The notes beneath the pieces are model-generated. The model did not search any database. It worked only from the letters and a program-made list of their open reading frames with translations, and was not told the origin of the DNA. DNA of 64,000 nt from Escherichia coli (lineage in GTDB: Bacteria > Pseudomonadota > Gammaproteobacteria > Enterobacterales > Enterobacteriaceae). Made by a program: the position numbers and the translations under genes. Below are positions 1-47,445 of the stretch, piece by piece (the first letter of the stretch is position 1; every line of letters starts with the position of its first letter). Location: assembly GCF_003018235.1 (NCBI RefSeq), contig NZ_CP027437.1; one strand, given 5' to 3'.

Positions 1-872
<872 letters not shown>

Positions 873-934
873 TTACCAGATTTAGACATCTGTTTCCGAT
901 AGCCCGTTCTGATGCTACACTTTTTGCTATTTTC

Positions 935-1621
935 ATGAACCTCATAAACACATTTATGACTGTTGCTGATTTCAAACGCCCCAAATTGGAGCTCCCAAAC
1001 GGGGCAAAAAAACTATTACTGCACTCTTGCTGTGCTCCATGTTCCGGTGAAGTGATGGAGGCGCTTCAGGCCTCGGGAATCGACTACACCATCTTTTTCT
1101 ACAACCCGAACATTCATCCTCAGAAAGAGTATTTAATTCGTAAGGATGAGAATATTCGCTTTGCTAAACAACACGGCGTGCCATTTATTGATGCTGATTA
1201 CGACACAGACAACTGGTTTGAGCGAGCCAAAGGAATGGAATGGGAGCCTGAACGAGGGATCCGTTGTACCATGTGTTTTGACATGCGTTTTGAGCGGACT
1301 GCGCTGTATGCCGCTGAAAATGGTTTCAGTGTGATCAGTAGCTCACTGGGCATTTCACGCTGGAAAAATATGCAGCAGGTTAACGACTGTGGACGGCGAG
1401 CCGTCGCGTATTATCCGGGCATGGTGTACTGGGATTATAACTGGCGAAAGCAGGGCGGCTCTTCCCGCATGATTGAAATCAGCAAGCGCGAACAATTCTA
1501 TCAGCAGGAATATTGTGGCTGCGTGTATTCACTGCGCGATACCAATCTACACCGCAAATCTCAGGGACGCCCTCTAATCAAAATTGGTCAACTCCACTAC
1601 GGTAAAGAAGGGCAGGAATGA
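935..1621 (+). CDS. DUF208 / QueH-like epoxyqueuosine reductase (start uncertain; ORF is open from a GTG at 842)
   Basis: [11 protein letters not shown] and YNPNIHP motifs plus several downstream Cys, as in DUF208/QueH proteins; about 230 aa. Confidence 0.6.
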
Positions 1622-2236
1622 TTTTATATTATGCCAACAACGGAGCGTAGCAGTGTTTCTATATATAGTACGCCTACCTTAATTTTCAAATAATCATGAT
1701 TAATGAGCAGGTCATCAGTGCAAGCAATGACCTGCTCATCTTGTTGAAATTAGAGGAAATCTTGAAGCCATGATATGGCTTAAAATAACGTTTGATTATT
1801 TTACCTGCTGTTTGTCCCTGGTTTAAAGTCGGTTGTCTGATTTGATTACGCGCAACTGACGCTTACGTATTGAAGTAACGAGCACGAAGACACATATTTA
1901 TCAGTGCCTGTATACGTCAAGAGCAGGAGATTTATGTGCTGGTTCTCAAATGCACGCTGGCTATTGTGGCTGTAATGGCAATTTATTGTCTTGTTATTGT
2001 TCTTATGGATCACCTTACTGATTGATTTCATATTGGCGAGGTAACGGTAGTTAAGTAGAATGGCTGCGGGTGCTTGAGGCTATCTGCCTCGGGCATGAAC
2101 ACCAACGGCAGATAGAGAAAAGCCCCAGTTAACATTACGCGTCCTGCAAGACGCTTAACATTAATCTGAGGCCAATTTCATGCTAGACACATGTAGGTTA
2201 GCCTCTTACGTGCCGAAAGGCAAGGAGAAGCAGGCT

Positions 2237-2392
2237 ATGAAGCAGCAAAAGGCGATGTTAATCGCCCTGATCGTCATTTGTTTAACCGTCATAGTGACGG
2301 CACTGGTAACGAGGAAAGACCTCTGCGAGGTACGAATCCGAACCGGCCAGACGGAGGTCGCTGTCTTCACAGCTTACGAACCTGAGGAGTAA
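2237..2392 (+). CDS. hokD: Hok-family type I toxin HokD (RelF), 51 aa
   Basis: Translation MKQQKAMLIALIVICLTVIVTALVTRKDLCEVRIRTGQTEVAVFTAYEPEE; SD aaggag 6 nt upstream of the ATG. Confidence 0.9.
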   Translation: MKQQKAMLIALIVICLTVIVTALVTRKDLCEVRIRTGQTEVAVFTAYEPEE

Positions 2393-2462
2393 GAGACCCG
2401 GCGAGGGAGAAATCCCTCGCCACCTCTGATGTGGCAGGCATCCTCAACGCACCCGCACTTAA

Positions 2463-2490
2463 CCCGCTTCGGCGGGTTTTTGTTTTTATT
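2463..2490 (+). terminator. Rho-independent terminator after hokD
   Basis: Hairpin cccgc-ttcg-gcggg followed by tttttgttttt. Confidence 0.7.
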
Positions 2491-2608
2491 TTCAACGCGT
2501 TTGAAGTTCTGGACGGTGCCGGAATAGAATCAAAAATACTTAAGTAGCGCGCAGGGATAAGAGGGATGGTCCCTTAAAGGGGAGAGCTAATTATCCGGAA
2601 GGATTCTG

Positions 2609-2860
2609 ATGATGAACATCGAAGAACTGCGTAAAATTTTTTGTGAAGATGGCCTCTATGCTGTGTGCGTTGAAAATGGAAATCTTGTTAGTCATTACCG
2701 CATTATGTGTTTGCGAAAGAATGGGGCTGCGTTAATTAATTTTGTGGATGGTCGAGTGACAGACGGATTTATCTTGCGCGAAGGTGAGTTTGTCACTTCA
2801 TTACAGGCACTGAAAGAGATCGGAATAAAAGCAGGCTTTTCAGCTTTTGCAGAAGAATAA
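2609..2860 (+). CDS. rem: Qin prophage small protein Rem
   Basis: 83-aa ORF MMNIEELRKIF... in the conserved hokD-rem-ydfU-Q order. Confidence 0.8.
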   Translation: MMNIEELRKIFCEDGLYAVCVENGNLVSHYRIMCLRKNGAALINFVDGRVTDGFILREGEFVTSLQALKEIGIKAGFSAFAEE

Positions 2861-2926
2861 ACTCATCTACAATCTTGCGCGGGGCTGAACTCCCGCTGAG
2901 TAACACCGTGCCACCGGAGAAAACCG

Positions 2927-3205
2927 ATGGCACGCAACGTAAAATATTACAATTCTGATAATTCGCCCGTTCTTGCCTGCACGCACGAGCGGTATTCTCA
3001 CGCATTCAAGTCTGAATGGTTCCAGCACCCTCCATGCACTGAAGAGCAGGCTGAATGGATAATTCAGTGTTACCGCAGGCGCGGATACGAGGTTAAGAAA
3101 GCCCTTAGTCTCGACTACCGTCACTGGATAATCTCAGTCAGATTGCCTTACTCCGAACGCCCACCGCGTCCGTCCCGTACATTCCAGCAACGCATCTGGA
3201 GGTAA
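2927..3205 (+). CDS. Hypothetical Cys/His-rich protein (92 aa) directly upstream of ydfU
   Basis: ORF ends 1 nt before the ydfU GTG start; no recognisable family. Confidence 0.4.
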   Translation: MARNVKYYNSDNSPVLACTHERYSHAFKSEWFQHPPCTEEQAEWIIQCYRRRGYEVKKALSLDYRHWIISVRLPYSERPPRPSRTFQQRIWR

Positions 3206-3206
3206 C

Positions 3207-4256
3207 GTGCGGGTATTACTTCGACCTGTTCTGGTACCGGAACTCGGGCTGGTGGTCGTTAAGCCGGGCCGTGAATCCATGCCGGTATTCCACAATACCC
3301 GGGTACTGGTGGAGCCGGAACCGAAAAGCATGCGTAATCTGCCGTCCGGGGTCGTTCCTGCCGTTCGCCAGCCGCTGGTGGAAGACAAAACATTGCTGCC
3401 GTTTTTCAGTAACGCACGGGTAATTCGTGCTGCTGGTGGTGCTGGTGCATTGTCTGACTGGCTGTTGCGCCATATTAAATCCTGCCAGTGGCCACACGGC
3501 GATTATCATCACAGTGAAACCGTTATTCACCGTTATGGTACCGGCGCAATGGTGTTGTGCTGGCACTGCGACAACCAGCTGCGTGACCAGACATCCGAAT
3601 CACTCGAGCAACTTGCTCATCAAAACCTGTCAGCATGGATGATTGACGTCATCGGTCACGCAATAAGCGGTACGCAGGAGCGTGAATTATCTCTGGCTGA
3701 ATTATCCTGGTGGGCGGTCCGCAATCAGGTGGCGGACGCGCTACCGGAAGCGGTATTACGTCGCTCGCTGGGATTACCAGCGGAAAAAAACTGCTCGGTG
3801 TACCGCGAAAGCGACATCGTACCGGGAGAGCAGACCGCCACCAGCATATTGAAACAGCGCACAAAAAATCTTGCACCGTTGCCTCACGCCCACCAGCAAC
3901 AAAACCCATCACAGGAAAAGACGGTGGTAAGCATCACCGTTGATCCAGAGTCTCCGGAATCTTTCATGAAGCTGCCTAAACGTCACCGTTGGGTTAAGGA
4001 GAAATACACACGCTGGGTTAAGACACAGCCGTGTGCTTGCTGCGGTATGCCAGCCGACGATCCGCATCATCTGATTGGTCACGGGCAGGGCGGAATGGGA
4101 ACCAAAGCACATGATCTCTTTGTGTTGCCTTTGTGCAGAAAGCATCACGACGAGCTGCATGCGAATACCGTGGCATTTGAAGAGAAGTATGGCTCCCAGC
4201 TGGAGCTGATATTTCGTTTTATCGATCGTGCGCTGGCAATAGGCGTACTGGCGTAA
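3207..4256 (+). CDS. ydfU: DUF968 protein YdfU with C-terminal HNH-like Cys/His cluster
   Basis: 349-aa ORF with GTG start and SD ggagg; C-terminus CACCGMPADDPHHLIGHGQGG...CRKHHDELH. Confidence 0.85.
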   Translation: MRVLLRPVLVPELGLVVVKPGRESMPVFHNTRVLVEPEPKSMRNLPSGVVPAVRQPLVEDKTLLPFFSNARVIRAAGGAGALSDWLLRHIKSCQWPHGDYHHSETVIHRYGTGAMVLCWHCDNQLRDQTSESLEQLAHQNLSAWMIDVIGHAISGTQERELSLAELSWWAVRNQVADALPEAVLRRSLGLPAEKNCSVYRESDIVPGEQTATSILKQRTKNLAPLPHAHQQQNPSQEKTVVSITVDPESPESFMKLPKRHRWVKEKYTRWVKTQPCACCGMPADDPHHLIGHGQGGMGTKAHDLFVLPLCRKHHDELHANTVAFEEKYGSQLELIFRFIDRALAIGVLA

Positions 4257-4269
4257 GTGGAGAACGAGC

Positions 4270-5022
4270 ATGAACCTTGAAGCTTTACCAAAATATTACT
4301 CCCCAAAATCTCCAAAATTGAGTGATGACGCACCGGCGACAGGCTCGGGTGGTTTAACAATAACAGATGTGATGGCTGCGCAGGGGATGGTGCAGTCGAA
4401 AGCTCCGCTTGGTTTTGCCTTATTCCTGGCAAAAGTTGGTGTTGAGGATCCTCAGTTTGCGATTGAAGGTCTGCTCAATTACGCGATGGCAATGGATAAT
4501 CCGACATTGAACAAATTGAGTGAAGAAATCCGGTTACAGATCATCCCTTACCTTGTGAATTTTGCCTTTGCTGATTATTCCAGGTCTGCGGCAAGTAAGG
4601 CTCGCTGTGAGTATTGTGCTGGTACTGGATTTCATAATGTATTGCGCGAAGTGGTGAAACACTCCAGAAGTGGGGAATCTGTTATCAAGGAAGAGTGGGT
4701 GAAGGAACTATGTCAGCATTGCCATGGTAAGGGAGAAGTCAGCACAGCGTGCAGAGGGTGTAAGGGGAAAGGTATTGTCCTGGATGAAAAAAGAACCCGG
4801 CTTCATAGCACGCCTGTTTATAAGGTTTGTGGGCGTTGCAATGGAAACCGGTTTAGTCGTTTACCAACGACACTGGCGCGGTGTCATGTCCAGAAGCTGG
4901 TACCAGACCTGACGGATTATCAGTGGTACAAAGGATATGCAGATGTCATTGATAAACTGGTTACAAAGTGCTGGCAGGAAGAAGCATATGCTGAGGTGCA
5001 ATTAAGAAAAGTGACGAGATAA
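4270..5022 (+). CDS. quuQ: Late-gene antiterminator Q
   Basis: 250-aa ORF with Cys-rich zinc-finger region (CEYCAGTG...CQHCHGKGE...CRGCKGKG...CGRCNGN); sits upstream of the lysis genes. Confidence 0.85.
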   Translation: MNLEALPKYYSPKSPKLSDDAPATGSGGLTITDVMAAQGMVQSKAPLGFALFLAKVGVEDPQFAIEGLLNYAMAMDNPTLNKLSEEIRLQIIPYLVNFAFADYSRSAASKARCEYCAGTGFHNVLREVVKHSRSGESVIKEEWVKELCQHCHGKGEVSTACRGCKGKGIVLDEKRTRLHSTPVYKVCGRCNGNRFSRLPTTLARCHVQKLVPDLTDYQWYKGYADVIDKLVTKCWQEEAYAEVQLRKVTR

Positions 5023-5192
5023 ATGATTTTCACCGAACGATGGCGACATAACGATTGTATTTTCTAAGGAAACGTGCAAAGAGTTTTCCAATGATGAGCC
5101 TTATATGCATACCTGTGGAAAATATCAATAAGCCGCGCAGAGTGGTTTTTTTGTGGACATAAACTTTGTGCAGAACGGTAACCATTATGGTT

Positions 5193-5229
5193 GCCGTGAA
5201 TGCAGTTTTTTTACATTGCTGGCTTTTTT
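5193..5229 (+). terminator. tR'-like intrinsic terminator about 190 nt downstream of Q
   Basis: Imperfect hairpin gccgtgaatg...cattgctggc followed by tttttt; matches the lambda PR'/tR' layout. Confidence 0.4.
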
Positions 5230-6099
5230 AGATTTGTGTTAGTTATTGATATTAACAAGAAGGGGAAAAGACATGCTAAAACGGCAGGATATGAAGGAAA
5301 CGGTTATGCGTGAATGTTCCAGTGTGATTAACCATATCATCTGGAGAAGCCATCCTGATGCAGGGAAGAGGTAACAGTAACGCGCATCAATCAGGCTGCA
5401 AATAAATGGCTTACGCCGGAAATCTGGCTATCGATGTATTACCGGTTTGTTACCCATGAAGAAAATTAAGGTGATAACGAAACTGATTTTATAGGTGTCT
5501 TGTCAGAGTGTTGCGATGAAACTTGTGTTGGCAGTGCAGGGAAAACAGTAGGATGAAAATTATAAATTGCTTTAAATGAGCTTGATTTTCCTCATGTTAT
5601 GAGATATTTGTCTTATATTGCTGGTTAATTATGAAAATTTTTGTAAATCTACAGCAATAAAATCCATATTAATTAAAGCACTAGATGCGTTTCTGATTTG
5701 TGCATGAAACATACATATCATAATGATTAATTGCATCTATAATTACAGATACAGCATTGTGCTATTAAAAAACTGGAGTCCCCATGAATACATTATATGT
5801 AAGTGATTCAAATGAAAAATCTCATGACAGGAATAAAAACAATGAGGATAGTAAGGGTAAGGATAATAAAAAAGACAACCGGAAAGAGTAAATAATCTTT
5901 CCTGCATGAAAATACTAGGGTGGAATATGTCAGAACATCCAGATTTTGATGACCGTAAGCCTGATGATGAGCCCGTTGAGCGTCCTGATGAGGGGCAACC
6001 ATTGAACCCTTTTTCACCGGATGATAAAAGAGATCCTATTATTTAGATATAGCAGAATATAGCCGTTTAAAGTAGGTTGTGTTTTGTTGCTATCCTTAA

Positions 6100-6126
6100 A
6101 CCACCTCCACAGGAGGTGGTTTTTTA
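6100..6126 (+). terminator. Strong Rho-independent terminator
   Basis: Perfect 9-bp stem accacctcc / ggaggtggt with 3-nt loop, then ttttt. Confidence 0.8.
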
Positions 6127-6182
6127 CTAATGGAACATTAATTGGCAGATGTGATTGTGTACGACTTATGGGAGGCTTAAGA

Positions 6183-6368
6183 TTATTTTCTGCCAATAAT
6201 AAAACCAAGCGTTAACCCTATGCTTAGAGCAACCACCACGCTAGTCAGTGGATAATTTCTAAATTTATCTTTAACGTTTTCTTTGCCTCCCTGCAAAGCA
6301 TCGTCAGCACATGATGCATATTTTTTGACAGTATTAACTATTTCGTTTTCAGATTGATTTGAAGTCAT
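6183..6368 (-). CDS. Small tail-anchored membrane protein, DUF883 (YqjD/ElaB/YgaM)-like; 61 aa from the first ATG (ORF open to 6467 with a TTG)
   Basis: C-terminal NYPLTSVVVALSIGLTLGFIIGRK resembles the DUF883 membrane anchor; weak SD agga. Confidence 0.35.
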   Translation of the reverse strand: MTSNQSENEIVNTVKKYASCADDALQGGKENVKDKFRNYPLTSVVVALSIGLTLGFIIGRK

Positions 6369-6823
6369 GTTTGAAGTCCTGATGTTAAGTGGTTTTTTAA
6401 TTATAGCAGATATGCTTTCAATGATAGGGCGGAGAGTTGTTATTGAGGTGATACTATGACCACTCAATCAATATTACATAAAATGACGTTTACTCCTGTT
6501 TGGCACAGTAGCAGAATTTTGCTTCTGCTACTGAAGTCGCTTTAGCACTAGAATATGCAGATGGATAAAGCAGTTCAGCGTATGTACTGCGTCATGCATA
6601 TCGGTCTTGCAGATATGACGAGAAGGGGAGACAAGGTGTGTGTAATGTAGAAGTCTTTAAAGTGCTGTCTGGGATAACTCTATGCTGAAGTGCAATTGAT
6701 AAAAGTAACACGATAAAGGTTTTTCAATGAAGATGGTAACGTGATGCTTGCATTTTTCAAAAAATATGGATAAAATTTTTTCAAAGATGGGCTTTGTATA
6801 CCCGACGTTAAGAAAAAGTAGAA

Positions 6824-6852
6824 AACCCGCTGATGAGCGGGTTTTGTGCTTT
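6824..6852. terminator. Bidirectional intrinsic terminator (3' end of the cspF transcript on the - strand)
   Basis: Hairpin cccgct-gatg-agcggg flanked by T-rich tracts on both strands. Confidence 0.55.
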
Positions 6853-7137
6853 AAATGGGGCAATGGTAATGTTGAATCTCATCCCGGGACTCATGTCTGT
6901 TAACTTATTATTTAGCTGGTGACTTGGTTATTTGCCTGATGTTTAAAATGTTTTCTTCCAGTACAATGTCCCTAAACACAATGAGTCTGCTTATTATATT
7001 ATTAGCAGAGCTATTACGGCCAAAGTACAGCATAAGCTTTTAAAGCCAATCAACCAGTCATCAAGACAGACGGGGTTATTCATAAAAACTCTCCATGTGT
7101 GATCCGATGGGGCCTGAAATTAAAGCTTTAATATAGC

Positions 7138-7350
7138 TCATGAAAGGTAAACATTGGCAGCTGAAGGGCCACGCAGACCATTTATCCGGCAAAATTCCAC
7201 GCGTAATCCGGTGGTAATTTCTTCTGCATCGCGGAGATTGAGCGCTGAAACATGAAGCTGGACATCGATACGACCATCGGATGGGGTGATAAGACCCTTG
7301 CCGCTTTTGCCGTCAAAGGTTTTGACAATTCCTGTCATTTTACGGGACAA
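7138..7350 (-). CDS. cspF: Cold-shock-like protein CspF
   Basis: 70-aa translation [70 protein letters not shown]. Confidence 0.9.
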
Positions 7351-7650
7351 AAAAATTCCTTAATACTGATAACTTGGCGCACTATACACACGTTCCTGAA
7401 GAAAGCTATAGTTTTTTGATGGGGTTGAAGATGGCTGGATGTCTAAAATAAACATTGCTTCATATGTTCAACTATGCGTTAATGATTGCGTCGGTTTGAA
7501 GAACAGACGATATACGAAGTAGTTTACTAAAGCAGTTCTCATTTCAGGTGTTATTCACTTATTCCTTCTTTGAGTCTCTCCAATTAAGTACGAAGTCGTT
7601 TCTGTTATGCAAACCATTTATGCCGAAAGGCTCAAGTTAAGGAATGTAGA

Positions 7651-7866
7651 ATGTCAAATAAAATGACTGGTTTAGTAAAATGGTTTAACGCTGATAAAGG
7701 TTTCGGCTTTATTTCTCCTGTTGATGGTAGTAAAGATGTGTTTGTGCATTTTTCTGCGATTCAGAATGATAATTATCGAACCTTATTTGAAGGTCAAAAG
7801 GTTACCTTCTCTATAGAGAGTGGTGCTAAAGGTCCTGCAGCAGTAAATGTCATCATTACTGATTAA
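7651..7866 (+). CDS. cspB: Cold-shock-like protein CspB
   Basis: 71-aa translation [26 protein letters not shown]... with the CspA-family RNP motifs. Confidence 0.9.
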
Positions 7867-8147
7867 AATTCATCGCTCGTCTGTATACGATAACGAAGAA
7901 GGCTGATGCCTGAGTAGAGATACGGACAGAGTAGTGAATATTGGATCTCTTTAATAAAAAGTAAGGAGATCCAATACATGAAACAATGGCCAGCATATTT
8001 GGCAAAATCTTAATCAGGAAAAGTATGCTAACCATTGTGGTGAAGTGCAGGTTTGCTGCATGAATAGTTTCACAGCAGAAGCTAACTGCTGGCATCGCAA
8101 AACAAAGTGCGTAAGTGGATGACTCCCACAAAAAGCACCACAATCTC

Positions 8148-8172
8148 AAACCCGCTCAGGCGGGTTTTTTAT
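8148..8172 (+). terminator. Rho-independent terminator about 290 nt downstream of cspB
   Basis: Hairpin cccgc-tcag-gcggg followed by ttttttatt. Confidence 0.7.
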
Positions 8173-8229
8173 TATCTGCTTTAAATATATTATTAAAATA
8201 TAAAAAATACTTGTTACTAATAAAATCAA

Positions 8230-8400
8230 TCAGGCTACAGCTTTAAGATTTGTCTGGAATACTTTGTTGCAATGAGGGCAGATCAAAAGGGCACCTTTTT
8301 GTACTCTTGAAAAACTGTGTTCTGACTCTTGGGTGCAGTTTGGGCAGGAACATTTAACGAGATAATTACGGCGTGATTTTGAGTCTTTACGTTCTGACAT
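8230..8400 (-). CDS. ynfU: Small zinc-ribbon protein (56 aa), YnfU-like
   Basis: MSERKDSKSRRNYLVKCSCPNCTQ...CPHCNKVF with CxCPxC...CPxC motif; assignment to ynfU is from memory of the K-12 small-protein set. Confidence 0.5.
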   Translation of the reverse strand: MSERKDSKSRRNYLVKCSCPNCTQESEHSFSRVQKGALLICPHCNKVFQTNLKAVA

Positions 8401-8619
8401 AGGCTTTTCCTGTATAAATGGCCGTATACAGTACACTAAATATGAAAACATTTCTCGTATTATTATTTTATATATGACTTTCTTTCAAAATAATTACCCA
8501 CATTTTTAATGTGTATGTTTTTTTAGCGCCGTTGAGAACAACGTGTGCTGTCAAAACTACCCCGTAGACTCCGATCTTTTCAAACATATTGCACCATCCG
8601 TGTACATCGGGGTGAGGAT

Positions 8620-8835
8620 ATGAAATCAATGGATAAGTTAACAACAGGTGTTGCCTATGGCACATCGGCGGGTAATGCTGGTTTCTGGGCATTGCAGTTA
8701 CTCGATAAAGTAACTCCGTCACAGTGGGCTGCAATCGGTGTGCTGGGTAGCCTGGTTTTTGGCCTGCTGACGTATCTGACAAATCTTTATTTCAAGATTA
8801 AAGAAGACAGGCGTAAGGCTGCGAGAGGAGAGTAA
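8620..8835 (+). CDS. essQ: Class II holin (phage 21 S-type pinholin) with dual-start motif MKSM
   Basis: 71 aa with two transmembrane segments; Met1 and Met4 give antiholin/holin starts; followed by a SAR endolysin. Confidence 0.85.
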
Positions 8836-8839
8836 TCCA

Positions 8840-9147
8840 ATGACTCAAGACTATGAACTGGTTGTGAAAGGAGTCCGTAATTTTGAGAATAAAGTTACGG
8901 TAACTGTAGCCTTACAGGACAAAGAACGCTTTGACGGTGAAATTTTTGACCTGGATGTCGCCATGGACCGTGTTGAAGGAGCTGCGCTGGAGTTTTATGA
9001 GGCAGCAGCCAGAAGGAGCGTCCGGCAAGTCTTCCTGGAAGTAGCAGAAAAATTGTCAGAAAAAGTTGAGTCTTATCTGCAGCATCAGTACTCCTTTAAG
9101 ATTGAAAATCCTGCCAATAAGCACGAGCGTCCTCATCATAAATATCT

Positions 9148-9151
<4 letters not shown>
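8840..9151 (+). CDS. ydfR: DUF1327 protein YdfR
   Basis: 103-aa ORF between holin and endolysin, as in K-12 Qin. Confidence 0.8.
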
Positions 9152-10175
<1,024 letters not shown>

Positions 10176-10535
10176 GGTAATATTAAATCGGAACATTTAC
10201 ATCGCGGAATGTAAAATTTAAATAAAAAGGACTCTTCCATGAGCCAAAATTCCTGAAATCTTAAGGGTAAGAAAAGGTCTTAATCAGAATGACACGTTTT
10301 ATTAATAAATAAAGCTATTCTTTCATTGCTGTGTTTTTCTTTACAAAAGTAATCCTTGCTATGGGTGGTTAATCATGCGTTAATGGTGTTCTGGTTTGTT
10401 ACAAATTTATCTGAAGCAGTCATTGTTATAATTTTATTATTTGTACCTCTTGGGATTTCCTTGTTGGTTTTTCTCTCTGATATTTTTTTTCGGACCATTC
10501 TGCCCAAGGGCTAATTTCTTCAAAAGGTAATAATT

Positions 10536-10748
10536 ATGTCTAACAAAATGACTGGTTTAGTGAAATGGTTTAACCCTGAAAAAGGTTTTGGTTTCATCAC
10601 GCCGAAAGATGGCAGCAAAGATGTGTTTGTCCATTTCTCAGCAATTCAGAGCAACGATTTCAAAACATTAACTGAGAATCAGGAAGTTGAATTTGGTATT
10701 GAGAACGGACCTAAAGGTCCTGCCGCTGTTCATGTAGTGGCGCTTTGA
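10536..10748 (+). CDS. cspI: Cold-shock-like protein CspI
   Basis: 70-aa translation [26 protein letters not shown]... Confidence 0.9.
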
Positions 10749-10952
10749 GGTAGACAATATTACAAACCATATTCACTTTAGATGCCCGTGTTGTCATGGT
10801 TCCCAGTATAGAACATCATCTTTTGATGTTTCTGACATGAATCCTTTCGGGGCAAAATGTATCTTTTGTAAATCAATGATGATTACATTTGATAATATTT
10901 CACAATACTTAAATGCCAGCCGTCTGTCGTTGGATTTAAAAAAGTGAAAATG

Positions 10953-10976
10953 AAGGCTCCTTCGGGAGCTTTTTTG
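10953..10976 (+). terminator. Rho-independent terminator
   Basis: Hairpin gctcc-ttcg-ggagc followed by tttttt. Confidence 0.65.
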
Positions 10977-11019
10977 CTTGGTGTCTATTCGATGGATACT
11001 CACATACTACGGTAACATC

Positions 11020-11250
11020 ATGAAAAAAATCATAGTTTTTTTTAACTCTGAACCAGCAGTGGTAGTGCCAGCGATGACTGGAGTTAACACCATCATGCGT
11101 GAATATCCAAATGGCGAAAAAACACACCTTACTGTAATGGCCGCAGGGTTTCCATCTCTGACCGGAGATCATAAAGTCATTTATGTAGCCGCGGATCGAC
11201 ATGTTACTTCAGAAGAAATTCTGGAAGCAGCAATAAGGCTCTTGAGTTGA
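11020..11250 (+). CDS. Hypothetical protein (76 aa)
   Basis: ORF MKKIIVFFNSEPAVVV... on the late strand between cspI and gnsB; no clear SD. Confidence 0.3.
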   Translation: MKKIIVFFNSEPAVVVPAMTGVNTIMREYPNGEKTHLTVMAAGFPSLTGDHKVIYVAADRHVTSEEILEAAIRLLS

Positions 11251-11421
11251 TTTGATGCTATTGTATTGATAATTCAGGAAAATTCTCTTTGTCTGTTTGT
11301 GTAAAATTTAGACTATCGTATGTTGATTATTGCGATGTTTCATCTTATCTTTTACACGTTTGCACCATATAATCGACTTACTGTGTAACTGGAAAGTCAT
11401 AACAGGCTAAAAGAGGAAATG

Positions 11422-11595
11422 ATGAATATTGAAGACTTAAAAACAAAAACAGAAGCAGATATTTCTGAATATATAACAAAAAAAATTATTGAACTTAAGA
11501 AAAAGACCGGGAAAGAAGTTACCAGTATTCAGTTTACCGCACGGGAAAAAATGACGGGTCTTGAAAGCTATGATGTCAAGATTAATTTAATCTGA
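11422..11595 (+). CDS. gnsB: GnsA/GnsB-family small protein (57 aa)
   Basis: MNIEDLKTKTEADISEYITKKIIELKKKTGKEVTSIQFTAREKMTGLESYDVKINLI; SD aagagga; missing from the ORF track because under 60 aa. Confidence 0.8.
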   Translation: MNIEDLKTKTEADISEYITKKIIELKKKTGKEVTSIQFTAREKMTGLESYDVKINLI

Positions 11596-11623
11596 TGTAT
11601 TCAATAATAAAATTTATCCATAA

Positions 11624-11647
11624 ACCCCGTTTTTACGGGGTTTTGTT
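11624..11647 (+). terminator. Rho-independent terminator after gnsB
   Basis: Hairpin ccccgt-tttt-acgggg followed by tttt. Confidence 0.75.
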
Positions 11648-11746
11648 ATATTTGAATGGTTCCGAATATCTAAATCACAATTGTTGATGGTTTTTATTAA
11701 ACCAATGCAGTCCGGCTCAGGAGTGAGAGAAGCCGGACGTTATGGT

Positions 11747-12157
11747 TTAGCGTGGTAAGATCTGTGTAGTTTTCTGGATGCTTTCAGTAAATAGTAATGA
11801 GTTATCAAAGGCATAGTAATATCTTTGGTGTTCCTGGATATTTGTAACCCATCGGAAAACTCCTGCTTTAGCAAGATTTTCCCTGTATTGTTGAAATGTG
11901 ATTTCTTTTGATTTCAACTTATTATAGGAGGTCTCTATAAGATGTTTGTTTCTGGAGAATTTAACATTTACAACCTTTTTGAGTCCTTTTACTAACACTA
12001 TGTTGTCGTTTTCTAACACAATGTGAATATTATCTGTGGCTAAATAGTAAATATAAAGTGAGACATTGTGACGTTTTAGCTCAGAATAAAATAATTCACA
12101 GTTTAAATCTTTACGCACTTGATCGAATATTTCTTTAAAAATGGCAGCCTGAGCCAT
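11747..12157 (-). CDS. ydfO: DUF1398 protein YdfO (136 aa)
   Basis: Start taken at the second Met, which has SD gaagg; length matches K-12 YdfO. Confidence 0.75.
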
Positions 12158-12457
12158 TGGTAAACCTTCCATGTGATACGATGGCGCGTAGTTTGCATTA
12201 TCGTGTTTATTGTTTCAATCTGGTCTGACCTCTTTGTGTTTTGTTGATGATTTATGTCAAATATTAAGCCTGTTTTTAATGAATAGTGTTGATTGCGTAA
12301 CAAAGTTGAGCCTTGCTGGCATCCAGGAGGGATATGCAACCGACAGATGTATGTAAGGTCGATGTACTCAAACTTTCATACTTTTCCTCTTTTATGCAGA
12401 AAGATTTGAAGTAATATTTTAACCGCTAGATGACGAGCAAACGCATGGAGCGACAAA

Positions 12458-12664
12458 ATGAATAAAGAACAATCTGCTGATGAACTCTCGTTGGATCTGA
12501 TTCGTGTAAAAAATATGCTTAATAGCACCATTTCTATGAGTTACCCGGATGTTGTAATTGCATGTATAGAACATCAGGTGTCTCTGGAAGCATTCAGGGC
12601 AATTGAGGCAGCGTTGGTGAAGCACGATAAGAATTCGAAGGATTATTCCCTGGTGGTTGACTGA
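12458..12664 (+). CDS. Hypothetical small protein (68 aa)
   Basis: ATG with SD ggag 7 nt upstream; no recognisable family. Confidence 0.3.
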
Positions 12665-12999
12665 GCACCATAACTGCTAATCATTCAAACTATTTCACCT
12701 GTGACAGAGTCAATATCGCATTCTGTCACTGTCAGGCTAATACAGAGCTGCAATTCAACTACTGCAATGTCCTCGTAATTAGGTGAATTTACAATATCGT
12801 CCTGTTCGGATGCCGGCTGCATTGCTGAAGATGAGGCATTTATGGTTCGCATATTTTCCCCTCATGCTCGTCAGTCCTGTGCGTAGGAAGAAACAGGACA
12901 CTCACACTAATTTGTGTGGGCATGCTGTGATGTCCTTCTGAATTATTCCTATTCCATTATGTAAAGCGCTGTATCAGATGCTCGTCACGGCTGTCAGGC

Positions 13000-13100
13000 T
13001 GTCGGGTCCTCCCGGTGGGGGCCCCTGCCACGGGGCGGGAGCGTCGCGGAAAAAGGCTAGTTTTTGAAATTTTATTCGTCATCACCACTACTGTAATTGA
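13000..13100 (+). other. Putative cos site (cosN/cosB region) upstream of the terminase small subunit
   Basis: acggggcgggagcgtcgcgg...ttcgtcat resembles lambda cos acggggcggcgacctcgcgg...ttcgtcat at the equivalent position. Confidence 0.45.
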
Positions 13101-35677: not shown

Positions 35678-36252
35678 TGGCATTCAGAATGAGTGAACAA
35701 GCACGGACCATAAAAATTTATAACCTGCTGGCCGGAACTAATGAATTTATTGGTGAAGGTGACGCATATATTCCTCCTCATACAGGTCTGCCTGCAAACA
35801 GTACCGATATTGCACCGCCAGATATTCCGGCTGGCTTTGTGGCTGTTTTCAACAGTGATGAGGCATCGTGGCATCTCGTTGAAGACCATCGGGGAAAAAC
35901 GGTCTATGACGTGGCTTCCGGCGACGCGTTATTTATTTCTGAACTCGGCTCATTACCGGAAAATGTCACCTGGTTATCCCCGGAAGGGGAGTTTCAGAAG
36001 TGGAACGGTACAGCCTGGGTGAAGGATACGGAAGCAGAAAAACTGTTCCGGATCCGGGAGGCGGAAGAAACAAAAAACAGCCTGATGCAGGTAGCCAGTG
36101 AGCATATAGCGCCGCTTCAGGATGCTGTGGATCTGGAGATCGCAACGGAGGAAGAAACCTTGTTGCTGGAAGCCTGGAAAAAGTATCGGGTGTTGCTGAA
36201 CCGTGTTGATACATCAACTGCACCGGATATTGAATGGCCAGCCCTACCGTAG
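35677..36252 (+). CDS. tfa: Tail fibre assembly protein Tfa
   Basis: 191 aa; start overlaps stf stop (ATAATGG). Confidence 0.85.
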
Positions 36253-47142: not shown

Positions 47143-47176
47143 CATTCATTGAGAAAACTGATGCTACTGTGTCAAC

Positions 47177-47274
47177 GATCCGTTATCAGTGCAGGAAAAT
47201 GCCTGTTAGCGTAAAAGCAAAACACAAATCTATCCATGCAAGCATTCACCGCCGGTTTACTGGCGGTTTTTTTT
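47177..47274 (+). ncRNA. mgrR: Putative PhoP-activated Hfq-binding sRNA MgrR (5' end approximate)
   Basis: PhoP box upstream; intrinsic terminator accgcc-ggtttact-ggcggt followed by tttttttt at 47247-47274; between dgcZ and mgtS. Confidence 0.45.
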
Positions 47275-47349
47275 CGCCGTCATAAAAATCAGGCCCCTTG
47301 TACACAGTTGTAACAAGGGGCCGGTTAGGTGAGGGATTATCTCCGTTCA

Positions 47350-47445
47350 TTAGTCATCCCATTTGTGGCTGAAATACGCGGCCAGAAAACCAGAAAATAA
47401 AATTATTCCCAGTACGGCCATAAAAACATTCATATTACCCAGCAT
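47350..47445 (-). CDS. mgtS: Small membrane protein MgtS (YneM), 31 aa
   Basis: MLGNMNVFMAVLGIILFSGFLAAYFSHKWDD; SD ggagg 7 nt upstream; hairpin terminator at 47281-47322. Confidence 0.8.
   Translation of the reverse strand: MLGNMNVFMAVLGIILFSGFLAAYFSHKWDD

Follow-up and report, generated by a model that had tools for sequence, protein, structure and literature searches.

The best-described relatives of the locus analysed here are the hok/sok (parB) system of plasmid R1, which serves as the type I paradigm among toxin-antitoxin systems, and hokW-sokW, which is carried by Sakai prophage 5 (Sp5) and by 933W-type Stx2 phages. For R1, processing of the hok transcript at its 3' end to a translatable mRNA, cleavage of the duplex by RNase III and killing upon decay of Sok have been described (PMC9841398), as they have in part for hokW-sokW (PMC8621323), and the R1 system both stabilises plasmids and lowers the plating of T4 (summarised in PMC8621323). 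HokW is toxic and is neutralised by sokW RNA made from its own promoter (Takada et al., 2021; PMC8621323), this protection being abolished by mutation of the sokW -10 element (PMC8621323). Upon treatment with mitomycin C, sokW RNA is lost in a RecA-dependent manner and HokW is produced, and deletion of hokW-sokW halves the yield of Sp5 phage (PMC8621323).

The hok loci of Escherichia coli chromosomes have been described as well. In K-12, IS elements or rearrangements of the genome have inactivated all of them except hokB (PMC12214031; PMC1635323), and hokD (relF), which is gene three of the operon relBEF within the cryptic prophage Qin, is transcribed from the relBE promoter (PMC3598666). When expressed, the coding sequence of HokD is toxic (bioRxiv 10.1101/2025.08.07.668861). 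The same survey found hok genes to be four-fold enriched in prophages, with no enrichment beside defence systems, and it cites reports that intact hokA (E. coli C), hokB and hokC (ECOR24) gave neither post-segregational nor rifampicin-induced killing (bioRxiv 10.1101/2025.08.07.668861).

Here we analysed a hokD locus within a 64,000-nucleotide stretch of E. coli DNA (hereafter the window). Judged from its sequence, the segment 2049-2487 is very probably a hok/mok/sok type I toxin-antitoxin cassette of the R1 and hokW kind, complete and self-contained (Table 1). Every sequence and structural element of such a cassette is present, conserved and positionally homologous, and the cassette reads as the hokD locus of the Qin prophage in its intact form and as a close relative of hokW-sokW. 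By analogy with R1 hok/sok and hokW-sokW, transcription, processing, toxicity and trigger at this locus would be expected to resemble those of the two described systems.

Table 1. Features of the hok/mok/sok cassette and its surroundings (positions are those of the window)
Feature	Position	Strand	Description and basis
hok promoter	2033-2061	+	-35 TTGGCG (2033-2038), 17-nt spacer, -10 TAGAAT (2056-2061); consensus scan
Full-length hok mRNA, predicted	2068-2486	+	about 419 nt; 3' end at the T run of the terminator
tac (translational activator)	2068-2079	+	mRNA 5' end; folds; invariant in 58 variants
Hairpin, upper part of the tac stem-loop	2080-2115	+	arms 2080-2088/2107-2115; minimum free energy (MFE) folds and Rfam consensus
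Sok antisense RNA gene, predicted	2112-2188	-	77 nt; mapping of annotated K-12 sokC/sokB
ucb (anti-SD box)	2120-2128	+	AAGCCCCAG; folds; invariant in variants
mok Shine-Dalgarno (SD) sequence	2168-2171	+	GAGG; sequence and RF01794 match; pairs with ucb (full-length fold) or dcb (fold ending at 2432)
mok ORF	2180-2392	+	70 aa, in frame with hok, as K-12 mokC; ORF list
Sok-target hairpin loop	2183-2189	+	CUAGACA; complementary to the Sok 5' end; fold of the RNA ending at 2432
Sok promoter, predicted	2195-2223	-	-35 TTGCCT (2223 to 2218), 17-nt spacer, -10 TAACCT (2200 to 2195)
dcb (downstream complementary box)	2201-2205	+	GCCUC; open-form partner of the mok SD; Rfam and folds; invariant
hok SD	2223-2227	+	AGGAG, 9 nt 5' of the ATG; read in the sequence
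hok (hokD) toxin ORF	2237-2392	+	51 aa; ORF list, Pfam HOK_GEF
TadA editing motif	2375-2378	+	UACG at the Tyr47 codon; sequence and PMC12214031
3' stem-loop	2400-2421	+	GGCGAGGGA-GAAA-UCCCUCGCC; folds; covariation helix 19
fbi (fold-back inhibitory element)	2442-2454	+	CCUCAACGCACCC; 12 bp with tac, one bulged C; MFE and centroid
Intrinsic terminator	2461-2486	+	stem 2461-2478, then T run; compensatory changes in helix 21

A sequence-only reading of this DNA had identified an intact Hok toxin, hokD, with a strong SD and its own intrinsic terminator, encoded in a prophage, and all of this was borne out. The toxin frame matched Pfam HOK_GEF (PF01848) at 1.2e-23 (82.9 bits, cut-off 22). The encoded protein shows 100% identity to HokD of K-12 and shares 47 of 51 residues with HokW, 41 of 51 with K-12 HokC and 22 of 51 with R1 Hok. 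The mok frame is an N-terminal in-frame extension of hok that overlaps it from the 5' side and carries an SD of its own. Mok and MokC are identical at 51 of 70 residues, the ATG of mok aligns with that of mokC when the locus is compared with K-12 hokC and hokB, and the ORF matched PHROG 251 ('MokW-like host killing') at 7.7e-33; from this homology, translation of hok would be expected to be coupled to that of mok. Recoding of Tyr to Cys by TadA has been reported for hokD mRNA (PMC12214031), and the corresponding motif is present in the toxin frame. Phage records annotate MokW or HokD at the cassette locus.

The conservation of the cassette was assessed in viral contigs (IMG/VR), which were scanned with the 70-aa Mok protein and returned at least 594 relatives. 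The best 80 of these loci all span Mok residues 1-70 at 94-100% identity and contain 58 distinct cassette sequences. Among the 58 variants, tac, the -35 and -10 of Sok, dcb, the mok ATG and the mok SD were invariant or near-invariant, and variation was concentrated at 2173-2187, in the Sok-recognition region, the Sok-target loop being the most variable spot. Codons 2-3 of mok occur as three alleles, CTAGAC, CTGAAC and CTTTGC. In many prophage contexts, homology between loci repeatedly sets in sharply near 2049 and breaks off near 2487, and the cassette behaves as a discrete, self-contained mobile mosaic unit with its own -10 at one end and its own terminator at the other.

The hok promoter matched the consensus at 9 of 12 positions in the scan, and its -10, near-invariant in the 58 variants drawn from the best 80 of at least 594 loci, aligns with the -10 of hokC, hokB and R1-type hok. 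We placed the 5' end of the predicted mRNA at 2068 because the Rfam model of the hok/sok leader (RF01794) begins there and because of the spacing from the -10. RF01794 matched 2068-2242 on the plus strand over its entire length (model positions 1-157 of 157), scoring 115.3 bits where the gathering threshold is 59. At the other end, the terminator forms the right boundary of the mobile cassette. Matches to the Rfam families isrK and rsmX in the terminator region fell below threshold and were taken as terminator look-alikes.

Folding of the leader, which the sequence-only reading had put forward as a check, yielded closed, open and metastable forms. The full-length RNA (2068-2486) has a predicted MFE of -171.6 kcal/mol (z = -7.9 versus shuffles), and in both its MFE and its centroid structure 2068-2079 pairs with 2442-2454 and 2122-2128 (within ucb) with 2166-2172 (the mok SD region), the mok SD being sequestered in the predicted full-length mRNA. 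For an RNA ending at 2432, the MFE structure flips to tac/ucb (2068-2075/2120-2126) together with mok SD/dcb (2168-2172/2201-2205), a fold that places CUAGACA (2183-2189) in a hairpin loop; this open form of the leader is the RF01794 consensus structure. RNAs ending at 2440, 2425 and 2421 gave the tac hairpin (2070-2079/2087-2096) with the mok SD still paired, the open form being the MFE at only one of the four trial 3' ends (2432). According to the folds, tac can pair with any of three segments, namely 2087-2096 (giving the metastable hairpin), 2120-2126 in ucb or fbi (2442-2454), and the partner of ucb is the mok SD when the leader is closed and tac when it is open. These are the same three states as in the model of R1 hok mRNA (PMC9841398). 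An inverted repeat (ctatctgcc/ggcagatag) that had been seen at about 2078-2116 and likened to the fold-back elements of hok mRNAs is real, lies at 2080-2088/2107-2115 and recurs in the MFE folds and in RF01794, but it is the upper tac stem-loop and not the fold-back element, which is the fbi at 2442-2454.

Covariation was examined in an alignment of 51 sequences, using a structure derived from one of the aligned sequences, and 97.4% of cells were paired over the full-length structure. Two-sided changes were found at 19 pairs, compared with 2.5 in shuffles (none of 500 reached 19) and 5-9 in slid controls, although many of the single two-sided changes stem from one divergent R1-type row, whose tac is absent from the alignment. 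Individual helices contributed compensatory changes: pair 2082:2113 of the hairpin is A-U in the window and G-C in 10 of the 51 related sequences, four pairs of the 3' stem-loop at 2400-2421 (helix 19) showed two-sided changes, and the terminator (helix 21) was likewise maintained by compensatory changes. The tac/fbi helix was paired in 99.3% of cells across the 51 sequences and is invariant among the 50 close relatives, so that covariation says nothing about it either way; by inspection of a separate alignment, one of its pairs is U-A in the cassette and C-G in the R1 type. By analogy with R1 (PMC9841398), the 3' stem-loop is expected to be the protective 3' end of the processed mRNA.

Control by a Sok-like antisense RNA or by mok had seemed not evident from the sequence alone, but both can be placed. 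When the window is aligned with hokC and hokB of K-12, sokC as annotated maps to 2188 through to 2112 and sokB to 2187 through to 2112. In its fold, the predicted Sok RNA begins with a single-stranded 5' tail, which is followed by a long stem-loop and finally by CUUUUCUCU as the other tail (-30.5 kcal/mol, z = -5.25 versus shuffles), and its gene carries an insertion of about 18 nt (2137-2154) relative to sokC, sokB and R1 Sok, which is present in 58 of 58 variants. The Sok promoter was located by homology and invariance; a consensus promoter scan did not list it because just 3 of the 6 bases of its -10 agree with the consensus. The -10 lies seven bases 5' of the inferred Sok start, and neither hexamer varies among the 58 cassette variants (best 80 of at least 594 loci). 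The promoter stretch is identical to the hokW probe YO-597 (2196-2225), and it was the sokW -10, at the same position, that was mutated to make a promoter-less construct (PMC8621323). The locus thus appears to hold in cis a Sok gene with its own promoter and with complementarity to the mok start region.

K-12 hokD is the orthologous locus, with the same gene order hokD-rem-ydfU-ydfT, and besides an identical toxin it has a 3' UTR, fbi and terminator that differ from those of the window by one base. Alignment with the K-12 relE-hokD region showed near-complete identity from 2223 to beyond 2620, with two substitutions, and none upstream of 2223. The homology starts 14 nt 5' of the hok ATG, and the window retains 155 nt of leader that are absent from K-12. 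The K-12 locus has relB-relE in place of the hok promoter, tac, ucb, the start of mok and the gene for Sok; its Sok promoter is gone save for one base of the -35, and what it retains is hok with its SD, the 3' UTR and fbi. The breakpoint thus falls inside a unit that the Rfam family, hokC, hokB, R1 and all IMG/VR relatives examined have whole, which makes K-12 the derived, rearranged form, in keeping with the published account of the K-12 hok loci (PMC12214031; PMC1635323). Of 5426 complete E. coli genomes, 4021 carried a 200-nt probe spanning the intact junction of leader and hok, and 1165 carried the K-12 relE-hokD junction, a genome being counted in either case at 80% or more coverage of the probe. 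The window form of hokD is therefore the majority form in E. coli.

These comparisons bear on the possibility, raised by the sequence-only reading, that the gene is an orphan Hok which has lost its relBE partners together with its RNA control and is expressed without an antitoxin. It is true that relBE is absent: tblastn searches with K-12 RelB, RelE, FlxA and YdfV gave no match anywhere in the 64 kb window, and the K-12-type relBEF arrangement, with relB-relE directly 5' and hokD as third cistron, does not occur there. In addition, RefSeq annotates the hokD CDS only, with no mok or sok feature. However, relBE is a type II module that is unrelated to hok control and is no functional partner of hokD, the full leader, mok and Sok are all in place, and it is K-12 that represents the form without leader, mok start and Sok, whereas most E. 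coli genomes carry the form of the window. We consider the probability of an uncontrolled orphan toxin to be negligible. The idea that the leader might be a decayed, inactive control region of the K-12 type was ruled out as well, K-12 having no leader at all and the leader in the window scoring 115 bits on RF01794.

The locus itself is already known: the identical sequence is annotated hokD in many RefSeq genomes, and the family, the RNA mechanism and a near-identical prophage member have been published. Since RefSeq marks the toxin CDS only and the relBEF operon of K-12 provides the textbook picture, intact prophage hokD loci can look like orphan toxins although they are complete modules under RNA control. 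The value of the present analysis lies in the corrected framing, and the element map (tac, ucb, mok, Sok, dcb, fbi) is transferable to thousands of identical or near-identical loci.

The closest characterised system is hokW-sokW, whose cassette is identical to that of the window at 390 of 416 nt (94%), as measured against the hok locus of the 933W-type Stx2 converting phage I. The Sok promoter region, tac, hairpin, ucb, dcb and fbi are identical, the same insertion of about 18 nt is found in the Sok stem, and both cassettes lie on the early-right strand of a lambdoid prophage, upstream of Q. By whole-cassette identity, the 18-nt insertion and the position upstream of Q, the locus falls within the hokW-sokW subfamily. 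The two nevertheless differ by six substitutions in the Sok recognition region at 2173-2187 (GAGGCCAATTTCATGCTAGAC in the window versus GAGGCTCAATCCATGCTGAAC in hokW; the loop reads CTAGAC and CTGAAC, respectively), and the Sok RNAs would not be expected to be interchangeable. They also differ at the C-terminus of the toxin, which is FTAYEPEE in the window and FVDYESEK in HokW, and in their flanking genes, those of the window cassette being QueH and rem. Stx2 converting phage I is matched exactly by the primers and probes with which hokW-sokW was studied, and most of them, including YO-597, also have exact matches in the window. The sokW probe YO-592 had no match in the window, because the recognition allele differs.

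Similarity to R1 hok/sok extends over the entire cassette. The elements follow in the same order and spacing, from the promoter through tac, hairpin, ucb and Sok stem to the terminator, with the mok SD, dcb, hok SD, hok, 3' hairpin and fbi in between, and the same alternative folds are predicted. In our own reading of an R1-type sequence, mok is out of frame with hok, whereas the two are in frame in the window, which further differs in a shorter hairpin loop, in the insertion of about 18 nt in the Sok stem and in its location, the R1 system being on a plasmid and the cassette in a prophage. The hokC/mokC/sokC (gef) locus of K-12 has an in-frame mok as well, its leader is about 76% identical and the ends of Sok map one-to-one. 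In contrast to the window cassette, hokC is interrupted downstream by IS186 with loss of the 3' end and fbi, is without the 18-nt insertion and is not in a prophage.

The surroundings of the cassette are those of a lambdoid prophage. Upstream of hok are a gene for QueH and the end of an element of the IS21 family (window 1-800), and directly downstream follow Rem, YdfU and YdfT, a Q-type antiterminator, at 96%, 91% and 92% identity (tblastn with K-12 queries), giving the context QueH-hok-rem-DUF968-Q with the cassette upstream of Q. The order QueH-hokD-rem also occurs in E. coli B REL606. Positions 801-13066 of the window are 99.6% identical to, and collinear with, a prophage that adjoins rspAB (the Qin attachment region) in strain FHI_NMBU_03. 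The cassette lies on the early-right strand between the gene for a cro-type regulator and Q, and its Sok promoter points upstream. An ORF of 29 aa at 1936-2025 had no match in NCBIfam or PHROGs.

Homology to R1 hok/sok and hokW-sokW suggests how the cassette may work. A weak constitutive promoter would give rise to a stable hok mRNA of about 419 nt, in which tac would be clamped to fbi and ucb would hide the mok SD, so that the full-length RNA would be neither translated nor bound by Sok. Slow trimming from the 3' end would strip fbi, whereupon the leader would refold to the tac/ucb and mok SD/dcb pairings and expose both the mok start and the Sok-target loop. The unstable 77-nt Sok RNA, transcribed convergently, would then pair with the exposed region, blocking translation of mok and the coupled translation of hok, and the duplex would be cleaved. 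Were Sok synthesis to stop, Hok would be made and would depolarise the inner membrane.

It could be argued that the locus is intact yet functionally silent or decaying, a hitch-hiking remnant like the chromosomal hok loci of laboratory strains that yields no effective Hok under any condition. Indeed, killing activity of the window locus should not be assumed, because the intact chromosomal hokA, hokB and hokC loci were reported to give none, neither post-segregational nor rifampicin-induced, and the hok loci of K-12 are regarded as inactive (PMC1635323; PMC12214031). The Sok and hok promoters are also weak by consensus, and an IS just upstream disrupts the prophage, which may not be inducible because of this IS21-family insertion. 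Yet the regulatory elements are invariant in the 58 variants while neutral positions vary, and the stems are kept by compensatory changes. Moreover, the 94%-identical hokW-sokW is a working toxin-antitoxin pair with a phenotype (PMC8621323), and the HokD coding sequence is itself toxic (bioRxiv 10.1101/2025.08.07.668861). We consider a silent locus to be very unlikely.

With respect to the role of such a functional cassette, analogy with hokW-sokW suggests that it most likely produces Hok on prophage induction and thereby aids lysis and phage release. The same mechanism might instead serve prophage addiction or abortive infection against superinfecting phages, in line with the post-segregational killing or abortive infection that the sequence-only reading had put forward. 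The stabilisation of plasmids and the reduced plating of T4 brought about by R1 hok/sok (PMC8621323) would fit such a role, as would the four-fold enrichment of hok in prophages (bioRxiv 10.1101/2025.08.07.668861) and the nature of the cassette as a self-contained mobile unit. But hokW-sokW, the only prophage member to have been tested, gave a lysis and phage-release phenotype (PMC8621323), hok genes are not enriched beside defence systems, and the chromosomal loci caused no post-segregational killing (bioRxiv 10.1101/2025.08.07.668861). Addiction or abortive infection is conceivable though less likely, and a contribution to lysis upon induction is, by analogy, our preferred reading of the role.

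A further proposal, which is speculative and which we think unlikely as it stands, is that the cassette acts as a sensor of induction: derepressed rightward transcription would occlude the Sok promoter and add hok-sense RNA, Hok would serve as an auxiliary, holin-like lysis factor, and the three Sok-loop alleles would keep the cassettes of co-resident prophages orthogonal, each timing its own Hok. If true, this would account for the unexplained RecA-dependent loss of sokW RNA in Sp5. Cassettes residing together in one genome could be compared for their Sok-loop alleles in four pairs only, of which two differ, one is the same and one is ambiguous.

Variation within the otherwise very conserved hok cassette, the type I toxin-antitoxin unit with its antisense RNA Sok, clusters at positions 2173-2187, that is, in the Sok-recognition region, when the window is compared with loci L006-L085, best matches of the viral-contig relatives of Mok. 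Codons 2-3 of mok, which lie in the loop of the target hairpin, occur as three alleles: CTAGAC, the type of the window (32 of the 68 loci scored), CTGAAC, the type of hokW from Stx2 phage Sp5 (22 of 68), and CTTTGC (14 of 68). On our reading of the sequences, a YUNR-type motif is retained by all three. Among four pairs of cassettes residing in the same genome, two carried different alleles, one carried the same allele and one was unresolved. The three loop alleles may represent orthogonal Sok specificities between co-resident prophages.

A second peculiarity of the cassette is an insertion in the Sok stem (see table), which forms a small GCGUC/GACGC hairpin on its own and extends the tip of both the Sok stem-loop and the corresponding hairpin of the hok leader. 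Because of it, Sok is ~77 nt long in the window, compared with annotated lengths of 59 nt for sokC and 57 nt for sokB in K-12. All 58 variants of the prophage cassette carry the insertion, as does hokW. Within hok itself, the Tyr47 codon falls within a UACG motif at 2375-2378, the context in which TadA carries out A-to-I editing; recoding of this residue from Tyr to Cys is described for the hokC, hokD and hokE mRNAs, with a level of 6% for K-12 hokD (PMC12214031).

Features upstream of and within the hok cassette (window coordinates).
Feature	Position	Strand	Details
IS21-family element, 3' end	1-800		IstB ORF 72-734, Pfam 2.9e-101
Epoxyqueuosine reductase QueH gene	956-1621	+	Pfam 4.3e-65
Perfect 13-bp inverted repeat	1703-1739		ATGAGCAGGTCAT, 11 nt, ATGACCTGCTCAT
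Strongly hydrophobic 29-aa ORF	GTG 1936, stop 2025	+	Product MLVLKCTLAIVAVMAIYCLVIVLMDHLTD
Insertion, ~18 nt	2137-2154		ACGCGTCCTGCAAGACGC; relative to hokC, hokB, R1-type hok and the Rfam consensus

A 29-aa ORF immediately precedes the hok promoter, with a strong SD (AGGAG, 1925-1929) at a gap of 6 nt from its GTG. It is absent from the RefSeq annotation and had no family match in NCBIfam or PHROG. In eight distinct variants the frame was unbroken and of unchanged length, and substitutions preserved hydrophobicity, but many changes were non-synonymous. Of the 80 loci compared, the best 80 of at least 594 relatives, about 20 carry the segment that holds it (1893-2048) together with the hok cassette. 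The ORF may encode an unannotated small membrane protein.

Further upstream, the IS21-family element terminates at position 800, and starting at 801 (L003:11162) the window is collinear with the prophage of strain FHI_NMBU_03 (L003), which is uninterrupted. This starting point falls in the truncated pseudogene of a methyltransferase, a short way upstream of QueH. The QueH gene itself sits in the prophage early region immediately upstream of the hok cassette, whereas K-12 Qin has flxA-ydfV-relBE in place of this region. The AT-rich spacer that follows QueH holds the 13-bp inverted repeat, ~80 nt beyond the stop codon. Terminator prediction did not flag the repeat, which lacks a T run; it may bind a protein or act as a weak terminator.

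Four more matches exceeded the threshold in the Rfam search of the window (7490-7913, 10390-10775, 36020-36218 and 47143-47356). These were two cspA-type thermoregulator leaders, belonging to prophage cold-shock genes, as well as IS009 and the Hfq-binding sRNA STnc560 (280 bits).
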